The position numbers and the translations under genes were made by a program. A DNA stretch of 63,613 bases, the filler included, from Reclinomonas americana ATCC 50394 (Eukaryota): assembly GCA_048213135.1 (NCBI GenBank). It is 22 parts of 22 records of this genome, joined end to end, with 100 filler letters (N's around TTAATTAATTAA, not from the genome) between each part and the next. Parts side by side here need not be neighbours in the genome. Positions count along the whole stretch, not along the records: positions 1 to 1,969 come from AFZH01018557.1; positions 2,070 to 3,801 come from AFZH01018558.1; positions 3,902 to 5,914 come from AFZH01018559.1; 19 more parts are not named here. The stretch is one strand, 5' to 3'. Under the pieces are notes generated by a model. It was not told the DNA's origin, ran no database searches, and saw only the letters and a program-made list of their open reading frames with translations. Shown piece by piece: positions 378-28,916 of the stretch. The stretch's first letter is position 1. The number at the start of each line of letters is the position of its first letter.

Positions 378-3300
378 TACGAGGGCGAATTCCGCTTCGG
401 CAAGCCTGACGGGTGAGCATCCACACACGTCCCACTTCTTATTACTTTCCTCACTCTCCTACCATCCACCTCCACACACCCCAACAGCTACGGAGTGGTA
501 CGTGACGTCATGTTTCCCTCCCATCACCTCAATCCACGCCTCATAATATCTTCGTGCTGCTGCAGTACACTTGGCCATCTGGCAGGTGCGTCTCTCCGCC
601 AGAATTGCTCTCGTTCACGATTGTAATCCCCCTTGCTTCATCTCCGCAGCCGGTACGAGGGCGAGTGGCGAGAGGGACAGCTCAGCGGCAAAGTTGAGTT
701 TATTCTTTCCCCCTCTCGTGACCTGTGCATTGCTCATTCTTGTGCACGTGCAGGGTATGAGCCGCCACGATGAATCTGTCAGCATGTCTTTTACTCACTT
801 GGCGTGCTCGTGTTCATTCGTACGCAGGAATCGTTGCGTGTTTATTGCAGCCTCTCATTCCTGTCAGAATATCCTGCTGAACCATACACACGTACAGCAA
901 TCATACAGCGACGGATCTCGTTACGAGATAGGTATTCGTGCTATCCCACTCGTCTCCTGACATTGTGTGCTTATCTCGCATCCTTCTTTCGTGCCAACAC
1001 GCGACGTATTCGAACGACAAGAGGAATGGCTGGGGTGTCGTTGCGTCTTTTCTGGCACTCTCTCCCGTTCCTGTCCCACATTGTCTCATCCTGTGCGTCG
1101 CAGTGTTGCGTTGCTGTCGTCTTCGCTCTTGCATTCCTCACACCACGCTGATGTGCGAGCTCTGGTAGATTTTGGAGCCGAGGGCGACGTCTACGAGTTT
1201 CGTCCGATAGTCATGTCACTTTCTTCGTTTCCTTTTCGCTCACTTGATTCGCAGAGGCGAGTGGGTCGATGATTCGCGCGAAGGACACGGAAAGTCGCGT
1301 CATCACTTCACATCGCAGCTTCGGTCGAATCATGTACTAACGGCGATGGTTTGTGCAGGCACACGTGGCCATCTGGAGCGTACTACGACGGCGAGTGGAA
1401 AGCCAATGTGCGCCACGGCAAGTTGAGTGACGGAGACGCACAGGGATGCTTCTTTTCCTTTCTCTCTCTCACGCTTCTATTTTGCCTCCCCTCTCCTCTC
1501 CCTCTGCAGCGGCGTTCAAGTCATGGCCGACGGCACCAAATTCGTCTGCGAGTTCCGCAGCGACATGCGTGAGGGTTTCGGCACCATGTACATGCCGAAT
1601 GGCGACATTTACGAGGGAGAATGGCACAGTTCTGTTGGTGAACGAGTACGCACCTCACCTTGATCAATCTCACTATTCCGCAGATGACAAGAAGCACGGC
1701 TTTGGTGTGTACATTGCCGCCAATCAGTACCGCTTCGAGGGCAGGTGGGTGAATGGCCGGCGCGAGGGCAAAGGCGTTATGATTGCCGCCGACGGCCGCA
1801 CGTACTCGTGTGGTGAGTGAGGACATGGAGCTACTCGTCGCACCTCCCTTTCTTCATCACTTAATCCCACTCGCGTGCAGAGTACAAGGATGACATGCGT
1901 GAAGGTGGGCGAGAGTTGCTGATATCGCTCTATGAGGTCGCTCGTCGATTCTCATCGCTGTACACGCTCNNNNNNNNNNNNNNNNNNNNNNNNNNNNNNN
2001 NNNNNNNNNNNNNTTAATTAATTAANNNNNNNNNNNNNNNNNNNNNNNNNNNNNNNNNNNNNNNNNNNNCCTTCCCCTTAACCACCTTCCCCCCCTCCCC
2101 TTCCCCTCTCCCCTCTCCCGCCTCCCTTCCCCTCTCCCCTCTCCCCTTTACCCCTTCCCTTCCCCTCTCCCCTTCCCCTTTACCCCTTCCCCTTTACCTC
2201 CTTCCCCTTTACCCCTTCCCCTTAACCACCTTCCCCTTTACCCACTGTGTTTATCCCATTCAGGCTACGGCACGTATCGAGGACCTGACGGTTAGTCAAC
2301 AGCGCAGCAAGTCGACTGTGGGTGAGCTGCTCTGCTGACCCTCGTTTGTCACACAGGAGAGACATTTGAAGGGCACTTTGTCAACGATCTGCGGCAAGGT
2401 GTGATGAAATCACCCAGACCTGCATCCTCTTTCTCTCTTCTCATCTTTTGGTAGGATACGGCACGTACCGCGATCCGCGCGTGTCCACCTACGAGGGTGA
2501 ATGGCTGGCGAACAAGCGGCATGGTGCGTCAGCGCCGCTCTCTCAGATGCCTCTCATACCACACATTCACTATCTCTCCGCGCAGGTCAAGGGACCGAGC
2601 GCTGGGTCGACGGTCGTGTCTACCAAGGTGTGTCTTTCTGTCTCTCTGATGTAATCGAACTGTGACCTGAAATGTTGATTGTATGGAACAGGCACCTTCC
2701 GACAAGACAAGGCAGACGGGGGCGGCAAGTACACAGCTCCCAATGGTGTGCTGCTCACTCATTGATACGCACGCACGCCCTTCACTTGCACTGATGTGTG
2801 CATACAAATCAGGCGACGTGTACGACGGCCTGTGGAAGAACGGTCTGCAACACGGTCCCGGAATCTTCCAGTGGGGCAATGGCGAGAAGTACTCGGTTCG
2901 TCGTTTCTGGCCAACTCTTCCGGCGCTGGTGTTACTCGTGGCTCACTTGCTCTCTTTTGCACAGGGTGTTGCGTTGCACTCAACTTGTTGATCCACGTCG
3001 GGTGTCATTCTGTTCAAATATGTTGCGGTGCAGGAATGGGCCAACGGCAAGTTCTCTGGCTACGGAAGGTCGGTTGGCATTGTCGTCAGTCTCTTTCCCC
3101 AAACATGGACTGATGTGCATACCATGCAGACACGAGTACGCCAATGGCGACGTGTACGAGGGCGACTGGAAGGATGGGCGAGAGCACGGACAGTTGCGTG
3201 AAGTGGTTACTAGTTGTAGCACAATGAATGTGCTGACGTGTGATGCAGGGGCACGTACACGTTTGCCGACGGTCGCAAGTATGTTGGCGAGTACGTGGAC

Positions 3301-3532
3301 GGTGTGCGCCACGGATCGGGATCGTTGCGTGCTGCAGGCTGGAGTTGTCGTTATGCGAGTGTTTTTCTCACATCCTTTATCGTGGTGCAGATGTGCGTGC
3401 TTCTCATGTGTGTTTGCGAGTTTGTGAGCGTTGACTGACGCGTGTCTGTGTGTGTCTGTGCGTGTCGTGATTCTATGTGCATGGATATTGGTGCCTGTTC
3501 ATTTTCATGTGCTCCTTGGTGTTTGTAATCGC

Positions 3533-3602
<70 letters not shown>

Positions 3603-3713
3603 GTATTTCGTGTGTTCTCTGTGGATGCCTTCGGTGTCGTTATTCTGTGCATTGATTTTGATGGCTGTTCTTTTGCATGCGCGTCTTGGTGTATGTATTC
3701 GCGCATGTGTGTG

Positions 3714-3786
<73 letters not shown>

Positions 3787-5874
3787 TCTGTGTGTGTGTG
3801 TNNNNNNNNNNNNNNNNNNNNNNNNNNNNNNNNNNNNNNNNNNNNTTAATTAATTAANNNNNNNNNNNNNNNNNNNNNNNNNNNNNNNNNNNNNNNNNNN
3901 NTGTGTGTGTGTGTGTGCTTGTGTATTCTCTGTGGTGTCGTTGGTTGTGCACTTGTGTGCGATATGCTGCGTAATCGCGGCCACACTTTGGTTTCCTTTC
4001 CCTATCTGCGCTTCTCTCCTTGCCATGTCTATCGGCTCTCTTTCTGCTCCCTCCAACAGACGCTTGGCCGAATGGTGCGCTGCGACACATCGTGCGCCCA
4101 CGCCCTTGTGTGTATCTCTCTCTCACACCTACCATCAACAGGAAACGAGTACTCTGGTGGCTGGGTCAATGGCGTGCGCGAGGGACTGGGCACGGTGAGT
4201 GGCGTTGTAAATGTCGAGCATGTCTGTCATGTGCTCACTCATGTGGCTCCACAGTTCCGCTGGGCCTCCGGTGCGCTTTTCTTGGACTCCTCGTTCGGAC
4301 GTTGCTCGTATTTCTCATTGTAGCTTCACAGGCGACGTGTACGAGGGTGGCTGGGTGCAGGGCATGAAGTGCGGTCGCGGAGAGGTGATTCTTGCGTGTC
4401 GGCCTCCCATGCGTAGAAAACCTGCTGACTTGCTTTCGCACTCGCAGCAAGTATACGCCTCTGGCGAAACTTACATTGTACGTCACTGTTTAGATCTACC
4501 ATGGTTGCCTGTTGATGTCATTGTTTCTCACTTTGTACTGTGAATTGCAGGGTGTGAATATGACCTCTAAATACGCTCCTTGCATTGTGTCACTCACTCG
4601 TTGATCGTCTGTGCAGGGTTTGACTGCTCTCATCTGCATGTTCTAACTTTCATCTATTCTAACAATCTCTTCTTGTTGCAGCGAACATTTTAATGACAAG
4701 CGCGAAGGTGTGTTGGTCGATGCGTGCGTGCTCCCCCGCGTTCCGTTTCACTCATCAAGCGTTTGCAGGAAAGGGAGTGTGCGTAGTTTGTCAGTCTTTG
4801 CACACAAGTGGTAGCTTTCAACTCACATCTGCATGCTTTCCTGCTGTGCCTGCTACGGAAACTGCAGCTGTGAGTTGTCTTCTGCACTGTACCTATGCAT
4901 GCCAATCATGTCGCTCATGAGTACCTCTCCTCCCCTCGCAGATGTGAGTTTGTTGGCATTCGCCTCTCTCCTGTTGTTGCTACTCACACCTATTCGTGCA
5001 CTTGGATAGACTTGGGCCAATGGCGCTTGGTTGCGTTTCTGAGATTCGCTTCGTTGCTCGCCGCCCACCTGCTCACTGCGTCTGTTTCAATCTGCAGGTA
5101 CGACGGCGAGTGGAAGGTCTGTTGACGCCGCATTCGTTACATTTCGATGTGATATCCTGTCCTCACTGATCTGTCTCTTTGCGCAGGCTGGCATGCAACA
5201 TGGGTGCGTGATGCACGGTGTTTCATTGTGACTCGCGTAATCTAATCTCTGCCGTGACGAGCAGCAAGGGCACTCGACGATATGCCGATGGCTCGCGGTA
5301 CGTGTGGATTGCTCGCTTCCTTTTTCTGTATCTCTGCTTGCTCTGACCATTCATGGTGCACGCAGATACCAGGGTGAGTCATCGTGGTGGAAAGGGCTGA
5401 CTTGCTTGTTGTGTTTCCGACACCCCTTTTCCTCAGGCGAGTTCGTGGCGGATCGCAAGGAGGGCTTTGGCGAGTACGTGTGGCCGAACGGCAACTCGTA
5501 CATGGTTTGCGTTGGATTCTGAATCCGGTCCATTGACTCCCTCTCACAAATGTGATTGTGAACAACAGGGCGAGTGGCTGGATGACATGCGAAATGGAGG
5601 TGCGTGTGCTTGAGTGTCTACGCGTGTGTTGCGCATGCATCATGAGTGCCTGCGAGTGCATTTCTGGCTTCTTGTTTGTCTGCTTCATATTCTGCCGTTG
5701 CTGATACTGACGTTCTCTGTTGTGTGCTTGCACAGAGGGAACATTCATCTGGTAACGCGCGCCCTCCAAGCTGAGTACTCTCTGGCCGTGTCGCTTAATT
5801 TGTGTTTCTCCACAGGGCCGAAACCGGCGAAACGTACAGCGGTTTGTGGAGAAATGACAAGAAGGAGGGCTATG
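378..5874 (+). CDS. MORN-repeat protein, partial at both ends; about 46 exons, about 520 aa, about 22 repeats
   Basis: Manual splicing gives continuous MORN repeats: YEGEFRFGKPDGYGVYTWPSGSRYEGEWREGQLSGKGIQSYSDGSRYEATYSNDKRNGWGVYFGAEGDVYEGEWVDDSREGHGKHTWPSGAYYDGEW ... ETGETYSGLWRNDKKEGYG. Phase is kept across the spacers at 1970 and 3802. Microexons are at 754, 828-832, 1104, 2965-2967, 3391-3392, 4551, 4617, 4868-4869, 4942-4943 and 5366-5373. Confidence 0.93.
1970..2069. other. Artificial scaffold spacer (44 N + TTAATTAATTAA + 44 N); first of 21
   Basis: Identical 100-nt spacers start at 1970, 3802, 5915, 13549, 18828, 20276, 21688, 22987, 27113, 28917, 32504, 35995, 38886, 41476, 43488, 45360, 50528, 52349, 57396, 59416 and 60632. 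The 12-mer gives stops in all six frames. Many spacers abut microsatellites. Confidence 0.98.
3533..3801. repeat. Intronic (TTG)n and (TG)n microsatellites
   Basis: (TTG)n at about 3533-3601 and (TG)n at about 3706-3801, inside a MORN intron. They produce the spurious polyQ/L/C ORFs. Confidence 0.95.
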
Positions 5875-6018
5875 GTGCGTGCGTGTGTGTGCTTCCTCGT
5901 GCATTAATGCATTCNNNNNNNNNNNNNNNNNNNNNNNNNNNNNNNNNNNNNNNNNNNNTTAATTAATTAANNNNNNNNNNNNNNNNNNNNNNNNNNNNNN
6001 NNNNNNNNNNNNNNACAG

Positions 6019-9000
6019 GCGAAGCTTCGGCTCGATGATAGTGCACTGGGTGATAGTGCATATAACAGCGCCAGCCAGGAGGTGAGGGTGTGATAGACAT
6101 GAGTGAGTGTCTGTCTCCCTCTGAAATCGGATTGCTCAAACAACAACGGTCACGCGCAGGTGTTGCGATTCGCGCAGAGCGATGGTGGCAACAGCACCCG
6201 CATTCTTCTCGTGGAGGGTCCGCGGGGGAGTGGCAAGACTTCTTTACTGCGCGAGTGCGCCTCGACATTGGCGCAGTATGTGCTGGACGGCACCGACTAT
6301 ATGCTGCCACTGTACGTCAACTTGACTGACACACTGCTGCACCGCGAGTCGGCAAGTTACGACTTGGTGGTGCACCTGGTGCAGCAGTTGCATCCTGGAA
6401 TTTCTGAGCTCGGCTTGATCCAAGTTCTTCGACATATGCGCATTGCTCTGTTCATTGACGGACTGGATAGCAGTGCTGCATATCAGCTTCAAGCCCCGCT
6501 GGTTGACCGCTTTCAGGTTCGTCTGACGCCGTGCATGCTTGCGCCCGGCCTCTCTGGCCTCACGAACCATTCTTTGCAGCTCGCCCACTACCACAACTTG
6601 CGCTTGATCATTGCGACGCGGCATGAGGTCCTCCAGCTCATGCATGTCAGCGGCGAACGTGTCGCGTACACGCGTTTGCTGGCGCCCTTCGACCTGGCGA
6701 GCAACTCGTACCAGCCGCAAAACATCCAAGTGCAACACCTTTTGCCGCCATCACTGCCCTCGATTGAGGCCTACCTTGGCGAGGAGCTGTACCAGGCGGC
6801 CGTGAAACGGCATGACGTGCATCTGCTGCGCTCGCTCTCCATCTTGCACCTGCTGCGACTGCTGGGTCCGTTGTGCGTCGCGCACCTCTCATCCGTGGAA
6901 TTGTTGCGAATGTGGCTGCTCTACTGCTCGGCCACGGAACCATCCGACCGTCTTGCACTTGGTTTGCGCTGTGTGCAGCGACTGGCGAGAGGATATAGAG
7001 CGCAAGGCGTGGTTTGCGGCGACCTTGGCGTGGTCGACCTGTTGATTGCTCACGGTGACGATGTTGATGACGAACCTGATGAGGCGGAGACGGAGGTCGA
7101 GCTCACCACCCTCGACGGCTTGCGCTTGGCGGTCATGCACATGCCCCTCCTGTCAAATCTGGTGGATACTCATGGCCAGGCGCTGCCTCAATGGGGCTTC
7201 CCTTCTCTCCATTGCGTGGAAATGGCCGCGGACCCGCTTCTCTGTGCGGATTTCAATAGGCAAGTCCGCGCTACCACTGCCGTCATCTTGTTTGGTGATC
7301 TGATTCTGGGTGGTGTACGCACATGCTTTCAGAGACCTCGTGTCGCTGGAGCATCAGCGCAGTCAGGATGCCGCCAGTTGGTACCTCATGTCACGGTTTG
7401 TTTCGCAACTGGCCGTTCATGCGTATGAAATTTGCTGACTAGAGCATCTTGTGCCTTGGTCGCAGGGGCTCGGCTGAGATTGTTACCTTGCGCGCGGCCT
7501 TGAATGCAGGACTGCGACCGGCGCTGGTTGCACTCCTGCGCAAGGAGATGCGCCGCTTCAAAGCAGCTGTGCAAGAACGCTGTGCTTCCACCGGCGAGCC
7601 AGACTTTGATGCGCGGAAAGCATGTTTCCTTGGTGGTGTGTGTGTAGACACTTTCAACGCGAAAGCACTTGATACAGCAACAAAGACTGCAATTGAGCGC
7701 GCGGAAGCCGAAGGAGTTTCTTTTCCCCTTGTGGAGCAAGTTGACCTCGATGCGTGGAGGTTCGCGTATGGAATTGGTGTGAGTGTCTCTTGTGCTCGCT
7801 GCGCTGACTTGCAGGTGATGCAGATATTGCTGGTATTCTCCAGGCAGCCAAGCTAAGCGCGGAAAACCGCCACGCGAGAGTTTCCTTGGCAACTGCGCCT
7901 CAGCGACTGCCTGTCGCACTCTCTGCTGTTTGTACGAGAACCCAGACGATGAGGACACTGTGGTGTCGTTCGACTCGGGCAAGATTATCAGCATCTTGGA
8001 ATTCGTAGCATACCGGTGCAGCATCAACCCTGCCGATGTCGCTGCTGCGGAGGTGTGGTCGCTGTCAACAGCACTGCCCCCTGACCGAGCGAAAGTTTTT
8101 TGGGATGCCGAAAACAGCAAGGATCGATACGCCATTCCGCTGTGCGACGACCGCGGGTTGTTGGTTGCGTTTCCGTTCCTCTGTTCTCTTTGCTGTCCCT
8201 GCGTAGGTTGTCTCACGTTGTTTGCTCGCAACAGGAGCTGCTGAAAAGAATCCGCGCTGTGAAGAACGACGTGGTCCACCGCGGAGCTGCTGGAACAGAG
8301 GAGGCCGTGTTTGCTCAGGCTATTGCTGAAATGCGGCTGGCGATGGACGCTGTCACTCGCCGACTTCGCGATGTGTACAACATGTCGGAGTCCATGTGTG
8401 CGGCTCTGCAGATTGACTTTGATACGCTCAGTGTGCCAGGTGTGTGAATATTTGGCGTTTGCATGTCAAGGGTGCATCTGTTGACCTGACCATCCTTGCA
8501 GCCGGTGGCGATGGTATGGAGGTGGTCGACGATCGCGCCACGTTGCTACGATCAGTCGCCACTCAGTGCGCCATGTACGAAGCGTTTGTGCCGTCGATTG
8601 TCGTCCCGCTCGACTGCACCCCGCAGCCGAATACGTCGGCAGTCAAACCGCAACCGGTACAGCAACAGGTGTGTGAAGAAAGAGTATTCCCTGGTGCTTG
8701 TCCCTGTCGCAGCGAACTCACTCGTTAACCAGATTCTCGACTTTTGTGCAACGCGACGTATCGGTGCAGGCGCAACACAGGTCGTGTTTGTGGTGGGACC
8801 CGTCGGCAGCGGCAAGACCTGCGCCATGGTGGATCTCGCGCTGAACTACAGCGCAGCCGCAGTCAACAGCACGGTGCAACCACTGCCTCTCCTCATCAAT
8901 CTGGCCGGCGTGCGTATCAAGCATCTCCGCGACCTCACTGTCGAAGGCCTTGTGCGCCTGTGGTTCCAGCAGCTTTCGGTGTCGACCATGGCCACTGCCA

Positions 9001-12000
9001 GTGCAGTCGCACGACTGTGTCGCCGCCCTCTGTTGCTTATGCTGGACGGTTTGCACGTACTAGCCGATGTGTCTGAAGCAAAGTTCTCTTCTCGCCTCGT
9101 TGCGTGTCCGTCTCGCCAGCAGTTAAAATGTGGTCGTCCGCTGTTTTGCTCATTGACATGCAGGTGCGAGACTTGGGCAATTACCCCAAGACTAATGTCG
9201 TCGTGTGCGTGCGCTCCGAGGCTCTGCGACCCGTGTCGAAGGTGCTCCTGGGCACGGATAGTCCCACAGCCGGTGGCGCCGCTGTTCTCGCCCTCACCGG
9301 CTTCAGTGACTCCGCGATTCACTTCTTCATCGAGCGATTTGTCAGCGAGTTGGCTGACGAAGCGCGCTCATACTCGACAGCCATGCAGATTGCCGCGTCA
9401 CAGGTAGCTGATATAGACCGGCCAATCGCGACGCTGCAGCCACGATTGCGCGACCTCATCGAAGCGCTGGGCTTGGATGCAGTGGACGGCATGGGACCTG
9501 ACGACGAGACGTGCCGCCGAGTGCGTGAAGAGGTGTGGGACAGCGCTCAGCGAGTGCCTGCCCTCCGTGAGCTAGCGCGTGTCCCGTCGTTCCTGCCACT
9601 GCTGTGGACGTGGCCACAAGTCGCTCAGCGAATCGCCGAATTGAACCAAAAAGGTGGGCGGCAGCTTTACACATTGGCGGCAACGCTGGCCAAGGTGCTG
9701 CGCGAGCGCTCGCTGGGAGTGCGTGATGTTGCGCACAACCGCGATGACGGTTATTATGACCACCTTGCGGGATGGATGCGTGAGGCCGATCAGATCCGTG
9801 TGCTGGAACGACTGGCCGTGGAGGCCTATCTTGCACAGAGTGACAGCATCAACGTGGCGGGGGAGAGTTGGCAGTTCGCCGTGGACATTCTGCAGCGGAG
9901 CGCTCCCACTGTGCTGTTGAGCGATGACTTTTCGAGCGCGCGCTTTGCTCATGTGCTTCTGCGTGATCACTACTTGGCGCGACAATTGCAGCGGTTGGTC
10001 GCAGTGCCGGTAGGGGATGAGCGCGAGCTGGAGACAGCACTGCGTGGCCACTTCCTCGGCACGTGCTACTTGTCTGAGCGCAACGACCACACGTTGCTGG
10101 AGATGCTGGCGGCCGCCGCTCGCTCAGACGCCAGAGTGCTGGACTGCCTGCTGAATCGTGTGTTGCGACTGCATCACGCAGTGCATGAGTGGGACGCGGC
10201 AGATGGTGTGCCAACGAGCAGTCGGCCGTGGGTGAACTGTGCCACCTCGAATGCTGCCACGATTCTCTGCCATGCTGGCGTGTCGTTCTCGGGTCTCGAC
10301 TTGCGCTCTGCTCACTTGGCGTACGCCGACTTGACCAATGTTGCGTGTTTGTCAGCTGCACCTGTGCGTACACTCTTTTTCACTCACTCTTTGCGTGTAC
10401 GCGTGTGTGCAGGTTGTGATGCACGGTACACTGCTGGATGGCGCGAATATGACGGGGGCGAGGTTGCACGGTGCCTTTATCGACGGGGCGTCGTTGCGCG
10501 AAACGATGATGTTCAGCGTTTCGTTTGGCGCACCTCCGACCCAACAGGAAACTGCGGCCAAGCAAGCTGCGCCTGACAACCGCCAGGCCGGACCGCAAGT
10601 ACAACTGGAACTCCTCGATCCCGTGATGAACACGGTCGCCACATCGCGCAATGGACTGCTGTACTCTGTTGGCTGCATGGACGGTTCGCTGGTTATGGTG
10701 GAGGATCGGGGTGCGCGACGGACGCGGTACAATCACATGGCCTTGTCGCCAGTCATGTCGATCACCGTCTCTGCCGACTCGCGTCGCATCTGTTGCGGCA
10801 ACCTCAATGGCACGCTGACGATTGTCGACTACGACGAGGGCAGCGGCGCGTGGCGTCGCTCGTCAACCATTTCTGTCTCGGACCATTGCATTCCGGCTGT
10901 CGCCTTCCTGAACGACGGCGGGGAGGAGCAGTCGGTGGTGGCGGGAACTTGGGATGGGCGCGTGTGTGAGTGGCCGGTGCATCCACCTGCAGATGCGGTG
11001 ATGCGGGACGGTGCTGCCGTCGTGCAACCAATCGATGTGTTGCTGGAGCGGCAGCCGACGTTGCTGCTGCCAGAGTTCTTCCGCACCGTGGATGAGCAGC
11101 CGCCTGGTCGGATTGAAGACTCGATCCTGACGGTGGTGAAACGTGTGCGCGGTTTCACGCCACACCGCTCTGCCGTGTTGACGCTCACGGCGCGTCGTGT
11201 CCGCACGCCGTCGACAAACTACGAAGAAGTTGTCGCCTGCACGCGTGAAGACAATGTGTACTTTTTCCAGCGGCAATACAGCGATGACCAGCAAGTACGA
11301 CTGCCGTGGACTGCGCGACGCCTCATGCCACGACTGTACGGATTGAGTACCGAGCCGCCACACCTGGCGCGTGTGTACGACACGCAGAGCGTGGCTCTGT
11401 CGCCCAACGGTTGCTGGCTGGCCACCGGCCTCGCCTCGGCCACCATTCAGTTGGTGAACATGGCGGCGGGGCGTGGAACGCTGACGCGCAACTTGGTCGG
11501 ACATCGTGCGCCGGTGCGCTGCCTGGTTTTCTCGCACGACAGCAAGTTTTTGGCGAGTGGCGGCGATGACTTGAGCATTTTGGTGTGGGCTGTCGACGCC
11601 GACGCCGAGGTGCCGGTGGCGACGGTGATCCACCGTGTGGAGCGGGCGCACGAATTCCCCATCTCGACCCTGTGCTTTGTGCAGGGCGAGTGTGCGGTGC
11701 TGTCGCTCTCACGTGAGGAGGCTCACCCGCGGCTGCAGCGGTGGACGTTCCAGCCCGACGAACGTCTGGTTCGCGGTCAGTTCCTCGGCCAGTCGGCGTC
11801 ATCCATGGGGGCAAGTCCGCATGTCATGACGCCGCGATTCGTGGCCATTGGTGGTGTTGCAGGCGCAACAGTGCGCGTGGTAACTGGCGGCGACGACGGT
11901 ACAGTCGTGCTGTGGGAGAGAGAGTTGGGTGGACCGGCGGCCGCCTTGCCAACCATTCGTGCCACCTTTACGCCACCTGCAACTCGTTTCGGTGGTCGCA

Positions 12001-27000: not shown

Positions 27001-27251
27001 GCGACTACAACAATACAGCGCACTTGCTCGTCACCAACGAGAAATCCAACAACCCAACAAAGAGCCCGTCCTACACACGTCCCGCAAATCAACTTTTGTG
27101 TCAATGCCACGCNNNNNNNNNNNNNNNNNNNNNNNNNNNNNNNNNNNNNNNNNNNNTTAATTAATTAANNNNNNNNNNNNNNNNNNNNNNNNNNNNNNNN
27201 NNNNNNNNNNNNTTCTATTGTGTACGTAGTACTAACTTTACCTTCGTCAGT

Positions 27252-27293
<42 letters not shown>

Positions 27294-27366
27294 TCCTTCG
27301 CTTTCCCCCTCTTATCTCCTTCGTGCCTGTCTTCTTTTATCTCACCCTTCCCTATTCTATCTGCAG

Positions 27367-28916
27367 AGATCCAAGGCCTCGACCCCGAGCAAATCTCCCG
27401 CTTTGTCGACTCTGGCGGCAACGTGCTCGTCATCACCGACGACACCGCCTCGGAGTACCTGCGTGAGGTGCGTCCCATTCCCCTCTGCCTCCCCTTCCCC
27501 CCGTCATTCCACTCACTCCCTCCCCCATCCCTCTACGCAGCTGGTGGGCGAGTGCGCTGGCGCGGAGCTCGACGACGCCGGCTACCGCGTCATTGACCAC
27601 GTGAACGCCTACACGGGCTTTGATGACGCGACAGGCGGCTCGGGGGCCAAGAAGGGCCGCAGGAAGGACGCCGAGCACCAGATTGTGCTCGCGCACGTCA
27701 TCAACGAGCTGAGCACGCTGGTGCCGGCGTCGTCGGCCCCGGTGGTGTACCGCGGCACAGCCATTGATGTGGATCGCAGCAACACGCTGGTGTCGGTGCT
27801 GTTGCGCGGCAGCGAGTTCTCCTACACGGGCTCGCCCGGCAAGGCCAAGCGTGTCGGTACCTCGTCCGGCATCGAGTTCGACACGCACCTGCGCAGCTCG
27901 GGCGACATGGCGCTGGCCATTAGCTTGCAGGCGCGCAATGGAGCGCGTGTGGTGGTCATGGCGTCGGTCGATGCCGTGTCGGATAAGTTTATGGATGCCA
28001 AGTTGGAGGAGTTGCGAATAGAGGGAAAGGCGGGGTGAGAGGGGAAAGGGAGGGCAACGGAGGGAGAAGGGTGGGCAACAGAGAGCAAGTCGTTACTTTT
28101 CCTGGCTTCGAGTCATGGTTCGCCGCCTCGATCTCTCGGTCTGTTGGTAGAGCTTGTTTGTGCGGACGCAAATCACTCCATCTCGACGTCTTGCTGTTTC
28201 TCTCTTTGATCATTTTGCGTCTCTTGATGCTTGCATCGTGTAGAGTGGAGAGCAGAGAGCAAGAGCTGCAACGGTTGACAGAGCTTGTTTGTGTGGACGC
28301 GCATTTGCGACATCTCGACCTCTTGTGTCATTGTTCTGTGACCTAGCTTCTCTCTTGAACATCGTACAACTGCGTTGGTTTTTGCATGGTTACAGAGTGG
28401 AGAGCATGAGTAAGGCATGAGGCCTTTCCTCACGTAGTCGCGTCATCTCGACCTCTTGCCCCTCTCGTTGCTCTCCCTCCGCTCTGCTCCTCTTGTTGCA
28501 CGTTCTCCGCTCTGCTCCTCTTTTTGCACATTATCTGCTCTGCTCCTCTCGTTGCGCTCCCTCCGCTCTGCTCCTCTCGTTGCACTCCCTCCGCTGTGCT
28601 CCTCTCGTGGTGATACGCTTCTCTTTCTGGTTCTCATCCCAAGGCGGCTCATATCTTCAGTACTGAGAGCGAGCGCCTTCCGCATTCCTTTCTCCGCTCT
28701 CTCTTCTCCCTTGTTTTCCTTCTCCCTTCTATACCTTCTCCCTTAATCTCACCCTTCCCCCTCCTCATCGCGCAGTGGCCGCGACGCCGGCAACCGCGCC
28801 TTCACCGAGAACCTCATCGACTGGTCCTTCCGCCAACGCGGTGTGCTGCGCATTGCGCGCGTGCACCACCAGCTCGTCGGCAAGGATCGCGCCCCGGAGG
28901 ACGGCTACCGCATTGG
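27367..28916 (+). CDS. WBP1: Oligosaccharyltransferase 48-kDa subunit (OST48/DDOST/Wbp1), partial
   Basis: ISRFVDSGGNVLV, RVIDHVN, LAISLQARNGARVVVMASVDAVSDKF and GNRAFTENLIDWSFRQRGVLRIARVHH. Exons at 27367-27467, 27541-about 28034 and 28776-28916. Confidence 0.93.

Follow-up and report, generated by a model that had tools for sequence, protein, structure and literature searches.

A MORN-repeat gene segment of Reclinomonas americana with predicted exons of one to five nucleotides between minimal introns

Introduction

Can exons of one or two nucleotides, several in one gene and some of them back to back, be retained in an mRNA? The question is raised by a MORN-repeat coding region of Reclinomonas americana ATCC 50394 (assembly GCA_048213135.1), located at 378..5874 (+) of the window, i.e., the whole stretch of 63,613 nucleotides (nt) that was analyzed and along which all positions are counted. 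A first-pass annotation of this window had described four exons of 2 or 3 nt in the region, among about 46 exons carrying about 1.55 kilobases (kb) of coding sequence. The analysis presented here identifies nine predicted exons of 1-5 nt (microexons). From splice signals, intron lengths and reading frame, it appears probable that these are truly spliced into a functional mRNA, and the region is likely a functional segment of a MORN-repeat gene whose coding sequence is cut by ordinary short U2-type introns.

A MORN-repeat array cut into 46 exons

The exon list was obtained by eye from three-frame translation, fitted to the MORN pattern, and then checked by script. It comprises 46 exons and 45 introns, all on the forward (+) strand, which encode 22 repeats; the coding region extends past both ends of the listed segment. 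The coding sequence amounts to 1561 nt (mean exon length 33.9 nt), so that this independently built list agrees with the number of exons and the coding length estimated at first pass. Scripted joining of the exons by their coordinates yields 520 codons without a stop. The Y-x-G-x-W anchors are found at residues 0, 23, 46 and onward to 483, and then at 507, which places 22 repeats in a 23-residue register: a single 24-residue unit closes the array and all other spacings are exactly 23. Translations of single exons match the Pfam family MORN (PF02493) in five of six cases, with 26.2-41.6 bits at a cut-off of 22.5, and the sixth reaches 17.5 bits. Comparison of exon 1686-1811 with longer proteins identifies MORN proteins that are 38-57% identical (three of six candidates). 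The repeats are old, with a mean identity of 49% and a maximum of 65% between repeats. A second MORN array, as a possible paralogue, was looked for across the window and not found, and an Rfam scan of the window gave no match.

The introns occur at a density of approximately 29 per kb of coding sequence, an interruption about every 35 nt, and repeat 18 alone contains eight of them. The extreme intron density pointed out in the first-pass annotation is thus borne out (45 introns in 1561 nt of coding sequence). Short exons are not confined to the microexons: the exon list includes one of 8 nt (5366..5373, +) and two of 10 nt each (488-497 and 4769-4778, +). The second of these borders one of the tandem microexon sets described below; the bordering exons are 4448-4477 and 4682-4707 for the set G+G, and 4769-4778 and 5010-5029 for the set CT+AT (all +).

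Nine predicted microexons in six compound regions

The nine microexons (four of 1 nt, three of 2 nt, one of 3 nt and one of 5 nt) are distributed over six compound regions, in which exons of 1+5, 1, 3, 2, 1+1 and 2+2 nt lie between two or three side-by-side introns. All nine are directly preceded by RCAG and directly followed by GT. Four of them, GGT 2965-2967, AT 3391-3392, CT 4868-4869 and AT 4942-4943, had been named in the first-pass annotation and are found exactly where it had placed them, each between RCAG and GT. The other five are G 754, GAATC 828-832, T 1104, G 4551 and G 4617.

The first region (693-897) contains two microexons. The 1-nt exon G (754..754, +), flanked by introns 693-753 (61 nt) and 755-827 (73 nt), provides the first base of the codon for the second Gly, an invariant one, in the G-x-G of repeat 1; the 5-nt exon GAATC (828..832, +) finishes this Gly, codes for Ile and is followed by intron 833-897 (65 nt). 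In region 1040-1168, the 1-nt exon T (1104..1104, +) is the first base of a Tyr codon and lies between introns 1040-1103 and 1105-1168, of 64 nt each. The 3-nt exon GGT (2965..2967, +), located between ...gcacag and gttgcgt, encodes the Gly of Y-S-G-E-W in repeat 13 and is flanked by introns 2896-2964 (69 nt) and 2968-3033 (66 nt). The 2-nt exon AT (3391..3392, +), located between ...ggtgcag and gtgcgtg, spans the Ser and Tyr codons of G-S-G-S-Y. Its upstream intron (3324-3390) measures 67 nt and its downstream intron (3393-4059) 667 nt as assembled, with a gap inside. In this region (3324-4059) two 2-nt candidates are bounded by AG and GT; TT at 3345 would leave an intron of 21 nt, and AT 3391-3392 is the only one whose upstream intron is of normal length (67 nt).

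The remaining two regions harbor back-to-back microexons of equal length. Two 1-nt exons, G (4551..4551, +) and G (4617..4617, +), supply the first and the second base of the Gly codon of Y-I-G-E-H, with intron 4478-4550 (73 nt) upstream of the former and introns 4552-4616 (65 nt) and 4618-4681 (64 nt) on either side of the latter. Two 2-nt exons follow farther downstream: CT (4868..4869, +), between ...actgcag and gtgagtt, provides the last base of a Val codon and the first base of a Tyr codon, and AT (4942..4943, +), between ...ctcgcag and gtgagtt, completes this Tyr of G-K-G-V-Y-T-W. The introns involved are 4779-4867 (89 nt), 4870-4941 (72 nt) and 4944-5009 (66 nt). The flanks of this pair match the CAG and GTGAGT described at first pass, and scripted exon joining reproduces the peptides G-V-Y-T-W, G-S-Y-A-W and Y-S-G-E-W that had been read across the microexons, which indeed supply conserved Gly and Tyr codons.

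Intron length and splice signals

Intron length is highly regular. Among the 43 of 45 introns that can be measured, i.e., that contain no assembly gap, 40 have a length of 55-75 nt (median 65 nt), and the other three measure 88, 89 and 136 nt. The introns beside microexons (sub-introns) are 61-89 nt long in all 14 measurable cases. Merged without their microexons, the gap-free compound regions would measure 129, 138, 204, 205 and 231 nt, near two or three times the modal length. Solutions were enumerated that place one or two exons of 1-5 nt between AG and GT, keep the frame and leave every sub-intron at 55-90 nt. For all five compound regions without a gap, a single solution is valid, namely the listed one; this applies to G 754 with GAATC 828-832 in region 693-897, to T 1104 in region 1040-1168 and to the G 4551 and G 4617 pair in region 4478-4681. 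Dinucleotide-preserving shuffles of the region interiors, which keep the AG and GT counts, contain any solution in 74, 200, 74, 43 and 217 of 3000 cases for the five regions; the product of the five fractions is approximately 4e-8, with region 4478-4681 contributing 43/3000, although the shuffling mixes incompletely and these counts are conservative rather than exact. A loose regular-expression scan for an intron, 1-5 nt and another intron finds approximately one match per kb on either strand, so that the pattern is uninformative without coding context. Neighboring sub-introns share no sequence, which argues that they are not duplicated pieces of the assembly.

The acceptors of the gene conform to RCAG, with C at position -3 and a purine at position -4 in 42 of 45 each. 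A position weight matrix (PWM) for acceptors was trained on the 28 introns that do not touch microexons (leave-one-out mean 6.2, standard deviation 3.1). The nine microexon acceptors score 2.7-10.0, and 25 internal decoy AGs average -2.2. None of the decoys scores as high as the acceptors of G 754 (10.0), G 4617 (9.1), GAATC 828-832 (8.0) or AT 4942-4943 (7.9), and any microexon acceptor is matched by two of 25 at most, as is the case for T 1104 (2.7). Of the 15 introns flanking microexons, 14 carry a CTNAC/T motif in their last 60 nt. AG is scarce inside introns (47 observed vs. 81.4 expected in 2523 nt), so that the splicing machinery would be unlikely to pass over an RCAG inside an intron. 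The two strongest microexon donors, both GTGAGT, follow microexons whose last base is not G: GTGAGTTG after CT 4868-4869 scores 8.8 and the donor after AT 4942-4943 scores 8.3, and none of 208 decoy GTs is as high as either.

Microexon inclusion and its alternatives

Whether the microexons are read as exons or removed with their surroundings makes a difference to the protein. An external hidden Markov model (HMM) was derived from three unrelated proteins (P0001-P0003), retrieved in the comparison with exon 1686-1811, which contributed 35 MORN units. It gives the microexon model 318.6 bits and the best canonical in-frame rivals 303.3-315.6 bits; the microexon model is ahead at all six regions, by 3.0-15.3 bits. 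Skipping of GGT 2965-2967 costs 4.8 bits, although the frame remains intact, and the rival splice at AT 3391-3392 costs 15.3 bits. Dropping the microexon letters from the joined sequence destroys the frame at four regions and removes the invariant Gly at the other two. Frame, 23-residue period and conserved Gly and Tyr codons all depend on the microexons, which would therefore have to stay in the mRNA.

A number of observations weigh against retention of the microexons. An in-frame, canonical GT-AG single-intron alternative exists at all six compound regions, and GGT, or G with GAATC, can simply be skipped with the frame preserved, so that frame alone is no proof of inclusion at these two places. 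Six of the nine microexon donors score no better than decoy GTs in the GT-rich introns, outstanding donors being present only after CT, AT 4942 and AT 3391 (matched by 0, 0 and 12 of 208 decoys). The incomplete mixing of the shuffles belongs here as well. The assembly is fragmented, with 21 linkers in 63.6 kb, and the intron after AT 3391-3392 holds a gap. One junction (928-1000) is explained only by an intron without GT-AG or by an error in the assembly. The exon list was, moreover, made by eye to the MORN pattern. Searches of protein collections with exons and open reading frames (ORFs) of the window gave no self or close protein, and metagenome contigs gave 441 pattern matches, none of them a relative.

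Some of these points would suit another kind of splicing, in which the compound regions are mostly removed as single long introns via outer or nearby canonical sites and the internal AG...GT are unused or used in a minority of transcripts. The protein would then lack 1-8 residues at each place, or many transcripts would be out of frame and degraded. The in-frame GT-AG alternatives at all six regions allow for such splicing, skipping of GGT or of G+GAATC leaves the frame intact, and one undoubted intron of 136 nt (5600-5735) is present in the same array. However, introns of 134-758 nt would be needed where 40 of 43 measure 55-75 nt, and their removal would take conserved residues with it, deleting the invariant Gly or breaking the 23-residue period; the HMM scores are lower at six of six regions. 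In addition, the internal acceptors resemble true ones in introns that otherwise avoid AG. Removal as single long introns is consequently considered unlikely.

The array might also be a decaying pseudogene or a mis-assembly, the microexons being by-products of a choice of sites that fits the frame. The manual construction of the model, the fragmented assembly and the single non-canonical junction speak in its favor. Decay or mis-assembly is difficult to reconcile, however, with 520 stop-free codons and 22 repeats in register, with one solution per region at low shuffle probabilities, or with adjacent sub-introns that share no sequence, and an independent HMM backs the gene model; this explanation seems very improbable. 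Least credible are nested or recursive units, of the stwintron or ratchet-site kind, whose intervening letters belong to the splice signal and are not kept: AG, 1-3 nt and GT do resemble recursive-splice sites and donor-disrupted twin introns as far as these are described in the excerpts consulted (PMC9024468, PMC8469720, PMC5126111), but removal of the letters loses the frame or the conserved Gly, as stated above, and AG and GT directly abut at none of the nine sites.

A possible order of splicing

Retention of the microexons in the mRNA is thus the preferred reading, and from the splice signals and lengths above we infer how such a transcript might be processed. Splicing would proceed by intron definition, each unit of approximately 65 nt being recognized separately. 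The recognized unit may consist of a GT donor, an interior poor in AG and, 12-25 nt ahead of the first RCAG, a CTNAC-like branch site. Splice sites on either side of a 1-3-nt exon would physically overlap. Such an exon is too small for the upstream 3′ factors and the downstream 5′ factors to be accommodated together, so the introns would have to be removed in sequence. Once the first intron is gone, the tiny exon would become the end of an exon of normal size.

A broader proposition combines two processes: the spliceosome would routinely remove arrays of minimal introns only 1-2 nt apart in a forced order, and a site-directed process would repeatedly add new introns, 1-3 nt away from those already present, at G|G in conserved Gly codons. 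Taken as a whole this is doubtful. Were it true, the locus would be the most intron-dense array, and its gene the first to have more than one exon of a single nucleotide.

Intron positions and origin

The first-pass annotation had noted that intron positions differ between repeats and had favored independent intron gain over exon duplication. Mapping of the positions onto the repeat unit, which it had proposed, bears on both parts of this claim. The 45 introns occupy just 22 of the 69 nt positions of the unit (none of 20000 random placements uses so few), and a 15-nt arc of the unit is free of introns (P 0.0017). They cluster at nt 5-10, 34-40, 44-48 and 61-68. These four zones correspond to conserved Gly codons (Y-x-G, G-x-G and a later Gly) and to the boundary before the frequent Tyr after G-x-G-x. 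G|G is the sequence context of 18 of the 45 introns vs. 11.9% G|G in the coding sequence. Eight positions recur, each in 2-5 repeats, and the tandem sets are each assigned to one zone (nt 39, 40, 45; 45, 46; 6, 9; 44, 46; 6, 7, 8; 44, 46, 48).

Adjacent repeats have a common intron position in 7 of 21 cases, a value reached by 161 of 5000 permutations, which fits some spread by local duplication or conversion. Repeat pairs sharing an intron position are not more alike in sequence (the observed difference is reached by 1874 of 5000 permutations). All-against-all blastn of the 43 gap-free introns of the locus gave exact matches of 12 nt at most and no match beyond 14 nt, and no introner-like family similarity was seen among them. 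A search for target-site duplications found in-register boundary repeats of 1-4 nt distributed as in mismatched 5′/3′ pairs. Independent gain is thus upheld in part: the introns have no similarity and repeats with shared positions are not more alike, but positions are clustered (22/69) and shared by adjacent repeats more often than by chance.

The positions are not scattered freely, and a recent burst of introners does not account for them. Hot spots of the protosplice type, at which introns were repeatedly inserted or retained, explain the pattern better, perhaps with old local spread in addition; old duplication of intron-bearing repeats is a less likely alternative. In this view, a small number of G|G sites resembling protosplice sites would have acquired or kept introns time and again, some introns would have spread locally between neighboring repeats, and recent copying of one mobile intron would have played no part. 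Three other origins were considered and rejected. Derivation of the introns from decayed 69-nt MORN units conflicts with the presence of the same 55-89-nt introns in the NACHT part described below, and none of the introns yields MORN on translation. Against tandem intron duplication stands the lack of similarity between neighboring introns, and against transposon-type insertion with target-site duplication the fact that boundary repeats do not exceed chance.

Unusual introns, donors and local repeats

The sole non-GT-AG junction among the 45 is a candidate AT-AC intron of 73 nt (928-1000, +). There is no AG in the 88 nt of 932-1019, around the junction of exons ending at approximately 927 and starting at approximately 1001. 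Among in-frame excisions of 73 nt, only 928-1000 (AT...AC) has a known terminal pair; it fits the local donor and acceptor pattern save for the first and last base, and it lies at a recurrent position of the repeat unit (nt 6). It may be a U2-type AT-AC intron or, equally, an assembly indel; its 5′ end is presumably unlike a U12-type donor. A 7-nt direct repeat (932-938 and 1006-1012, 74 nt apart) occurs here out of register with the frame.

The donor word GTTGCGT is used by 7 of the 45 introns (starts 833, 1040, 1105, 2968, 3193, 3324 and 5030). Sixteen donors lack a preceding G, and 11 of these have no match to the textbook positions +3 to +6. GTTGCGT-like donors resemble the common GTGCGT or GTGAGT plus one T, perhaps reflecting a shifted or bulged U1 register. 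Intron 5600-5735 (136 nt) has about twice the usual length; it contains no AG followed by GT and thus no hidden microexon. Intron 3393-4059, of at least 667 nt, includes a perfect (TTG)23 at 3533-3602 and a (TG)48 at 3706-3801 besides the assembly gap at 3802-3901. A C/T-rich 14-nt tandem array of about 12 copies (2070-2243) is located in the intron after the first gap, and a purine-rich 67-nt tandem duplication (110-237) lies upstream of the first MORN exon.

Downstream NACHT/WD40 region and context of the window

Downstream of the array, a region coding for NACHT, a second P-loop NTPase (NACHT) and WD40 (6019..13180, +; Pfam NACHT and WD40 matches) can be read as an open frame with just seven GT...RCAG introns of 55-89 nt. 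The array has 45 introns per 1.56 kb vs. at least 7 per approximately 7 kb here. As intron size is the same in both parts, it appears to be a property of the genome, whereas the density sets the MORN array apart. A good donor follows the last MORN exon, and an RCAG acceptor precedes the first exon beyond the gap 5915-6014; the phases do not join directly across this gap, which conceals the link between MORN and NACHT. The MORN and NACHT-NACHT-WD40 parts are probably one gene, in which the array would probably form the N-terminal part of a MORN-NACHT-WD40 STAND NTPase. The NACHT ORF had no protein match at E<=0.001 in a word-based search with 8000 scored candidates; a protein-atlas search gave bacterial NACHT clusters.

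The window as a whole is dense in NLR-like parts (NACHT, WD40, TPR_10/TPR_12 and LRR), which are located at 6019-13180, 14-16.6 kb, 20.6-21.7 kb (-), 24.9-26 kb, 39.5-40.9 kb (-) and 59.5-63.6 kb. An ORF with an OST48 N-terminal domain (27214-28035, +; Pfam 1.3e-17) had no match at E<=0.001 among 8000 scored candidates. A full HMMER scan of 1.84 billion representative proteins gave 23 matches for it, the best 44% identical, and among six matches examined a picozoan and a Cyanophora protein are each 36% identical. The 21 linkers are identical and 100 nt long (N44, a 12-nt motif with stops in all frames, N44), and they separate contigs of 1-5 kb; a literature search for the motif turned up no relevant paper. 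The MORN gene continues across three of the linkers, which argues that they mark scaffold gaps rather than arbitrary joins.

Comparison with known systems

The comparisons below draw on excerpts of the cited papers. Single exons of 1 nt are already published and tend to be seen as curiosities. A constitutive one is experimentally established in Arabidopsis APC11 (PMC4674806) and another in plant VPS55 (PMC8831610), and a 1-nt exon that forms the central base of a Gly codon is reported in Fusarium CYP621A (PMC12940212). As in these genes, predicted single-nucleotide exons of the MORN array lie between canonical introns, both the frame and a conserved codon require them, and they are of a kind overlooked by annotation pipelines. 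The three genes are described as having one microexon each, backed by RNA-seq, RT-PCR or reporter assays; the MORN gene, in contrast, would have nine, predicted from genomic DNA. A rice transcript contains neighboring exons of 5 and 12 nt (PMC8831610), and 3-nt exons occur in the dinoflagellate Amphidinium carterae (PMC12584245). These cases share with the MORN array very short coding exons, sometimes adjoining, in intron-rich genes, but the MORN exons are shorter (1+1 and 2+2 nt) and belong to a repeat array with approximately 29 introns per kb of coding sequence. A literature search for a gene with several 1-2-nt exons or with back-to-back ones turned up, in the excerpts available, single-microexon cases only. 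Several such exons per gene and back-to-back pairs, as predicted here, therefore appear to be new.

If the prediction is correct, nine exons of 1-5 nt in one gene would be a record. It would imply that intron-defined splicing needs essentially no exon and can be chained, and that gains of introns can accumulate only a few nucleotides apart. The locus would also offer a natural substrate for studying the order of action of neighboring spliceosomes, and would put gene finders and RNA-seq aligners to a hard test, as these are unable to place such exons. If the microexons are instead skipped in the RNA, it would still be a clear case of perfect splice signals that mislead.

Two splicing reactions at nearly one spot, in an order forced by geometry, are likewise a feature of stwintrons, the spliceosomal twin introns of fungi (PMC9024468, PMC8469720, PMC5587772), and of recursive splicing (PMC5126111). 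In these systems, as described in the sources cited, the inner intron splits a splice signal, or the exon has zero length, and no letters are kept in the mRNA. In the MORN model, unlike in stwintrons or at recursive sites, 1-5 nt are predicted to stay: the intervening letters are needed for the frame or for Gly, and AG and GT never abut.

Dinoflagellates have been called the apex of intron-driven gene fragmentation, at some twenty introns per gene (bioRxiv 10.1101/2020.10.14.339549), and introners or introner-like elements are a described source of intron gain (bioRxiv 10.1101/2020.10.14.339549; PMC3879977). The very high local number of introns in the MORN array is similarly suggestive of bursts of gain. 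In contrast to introners, as portrayed in these sources, the MORN introns have no similarity beyond 14 nt and no boundary repeats beyond chance, and they are dense in the MORN array only. If site-directed gain is true, it would create introns in another way than introner transposition does.

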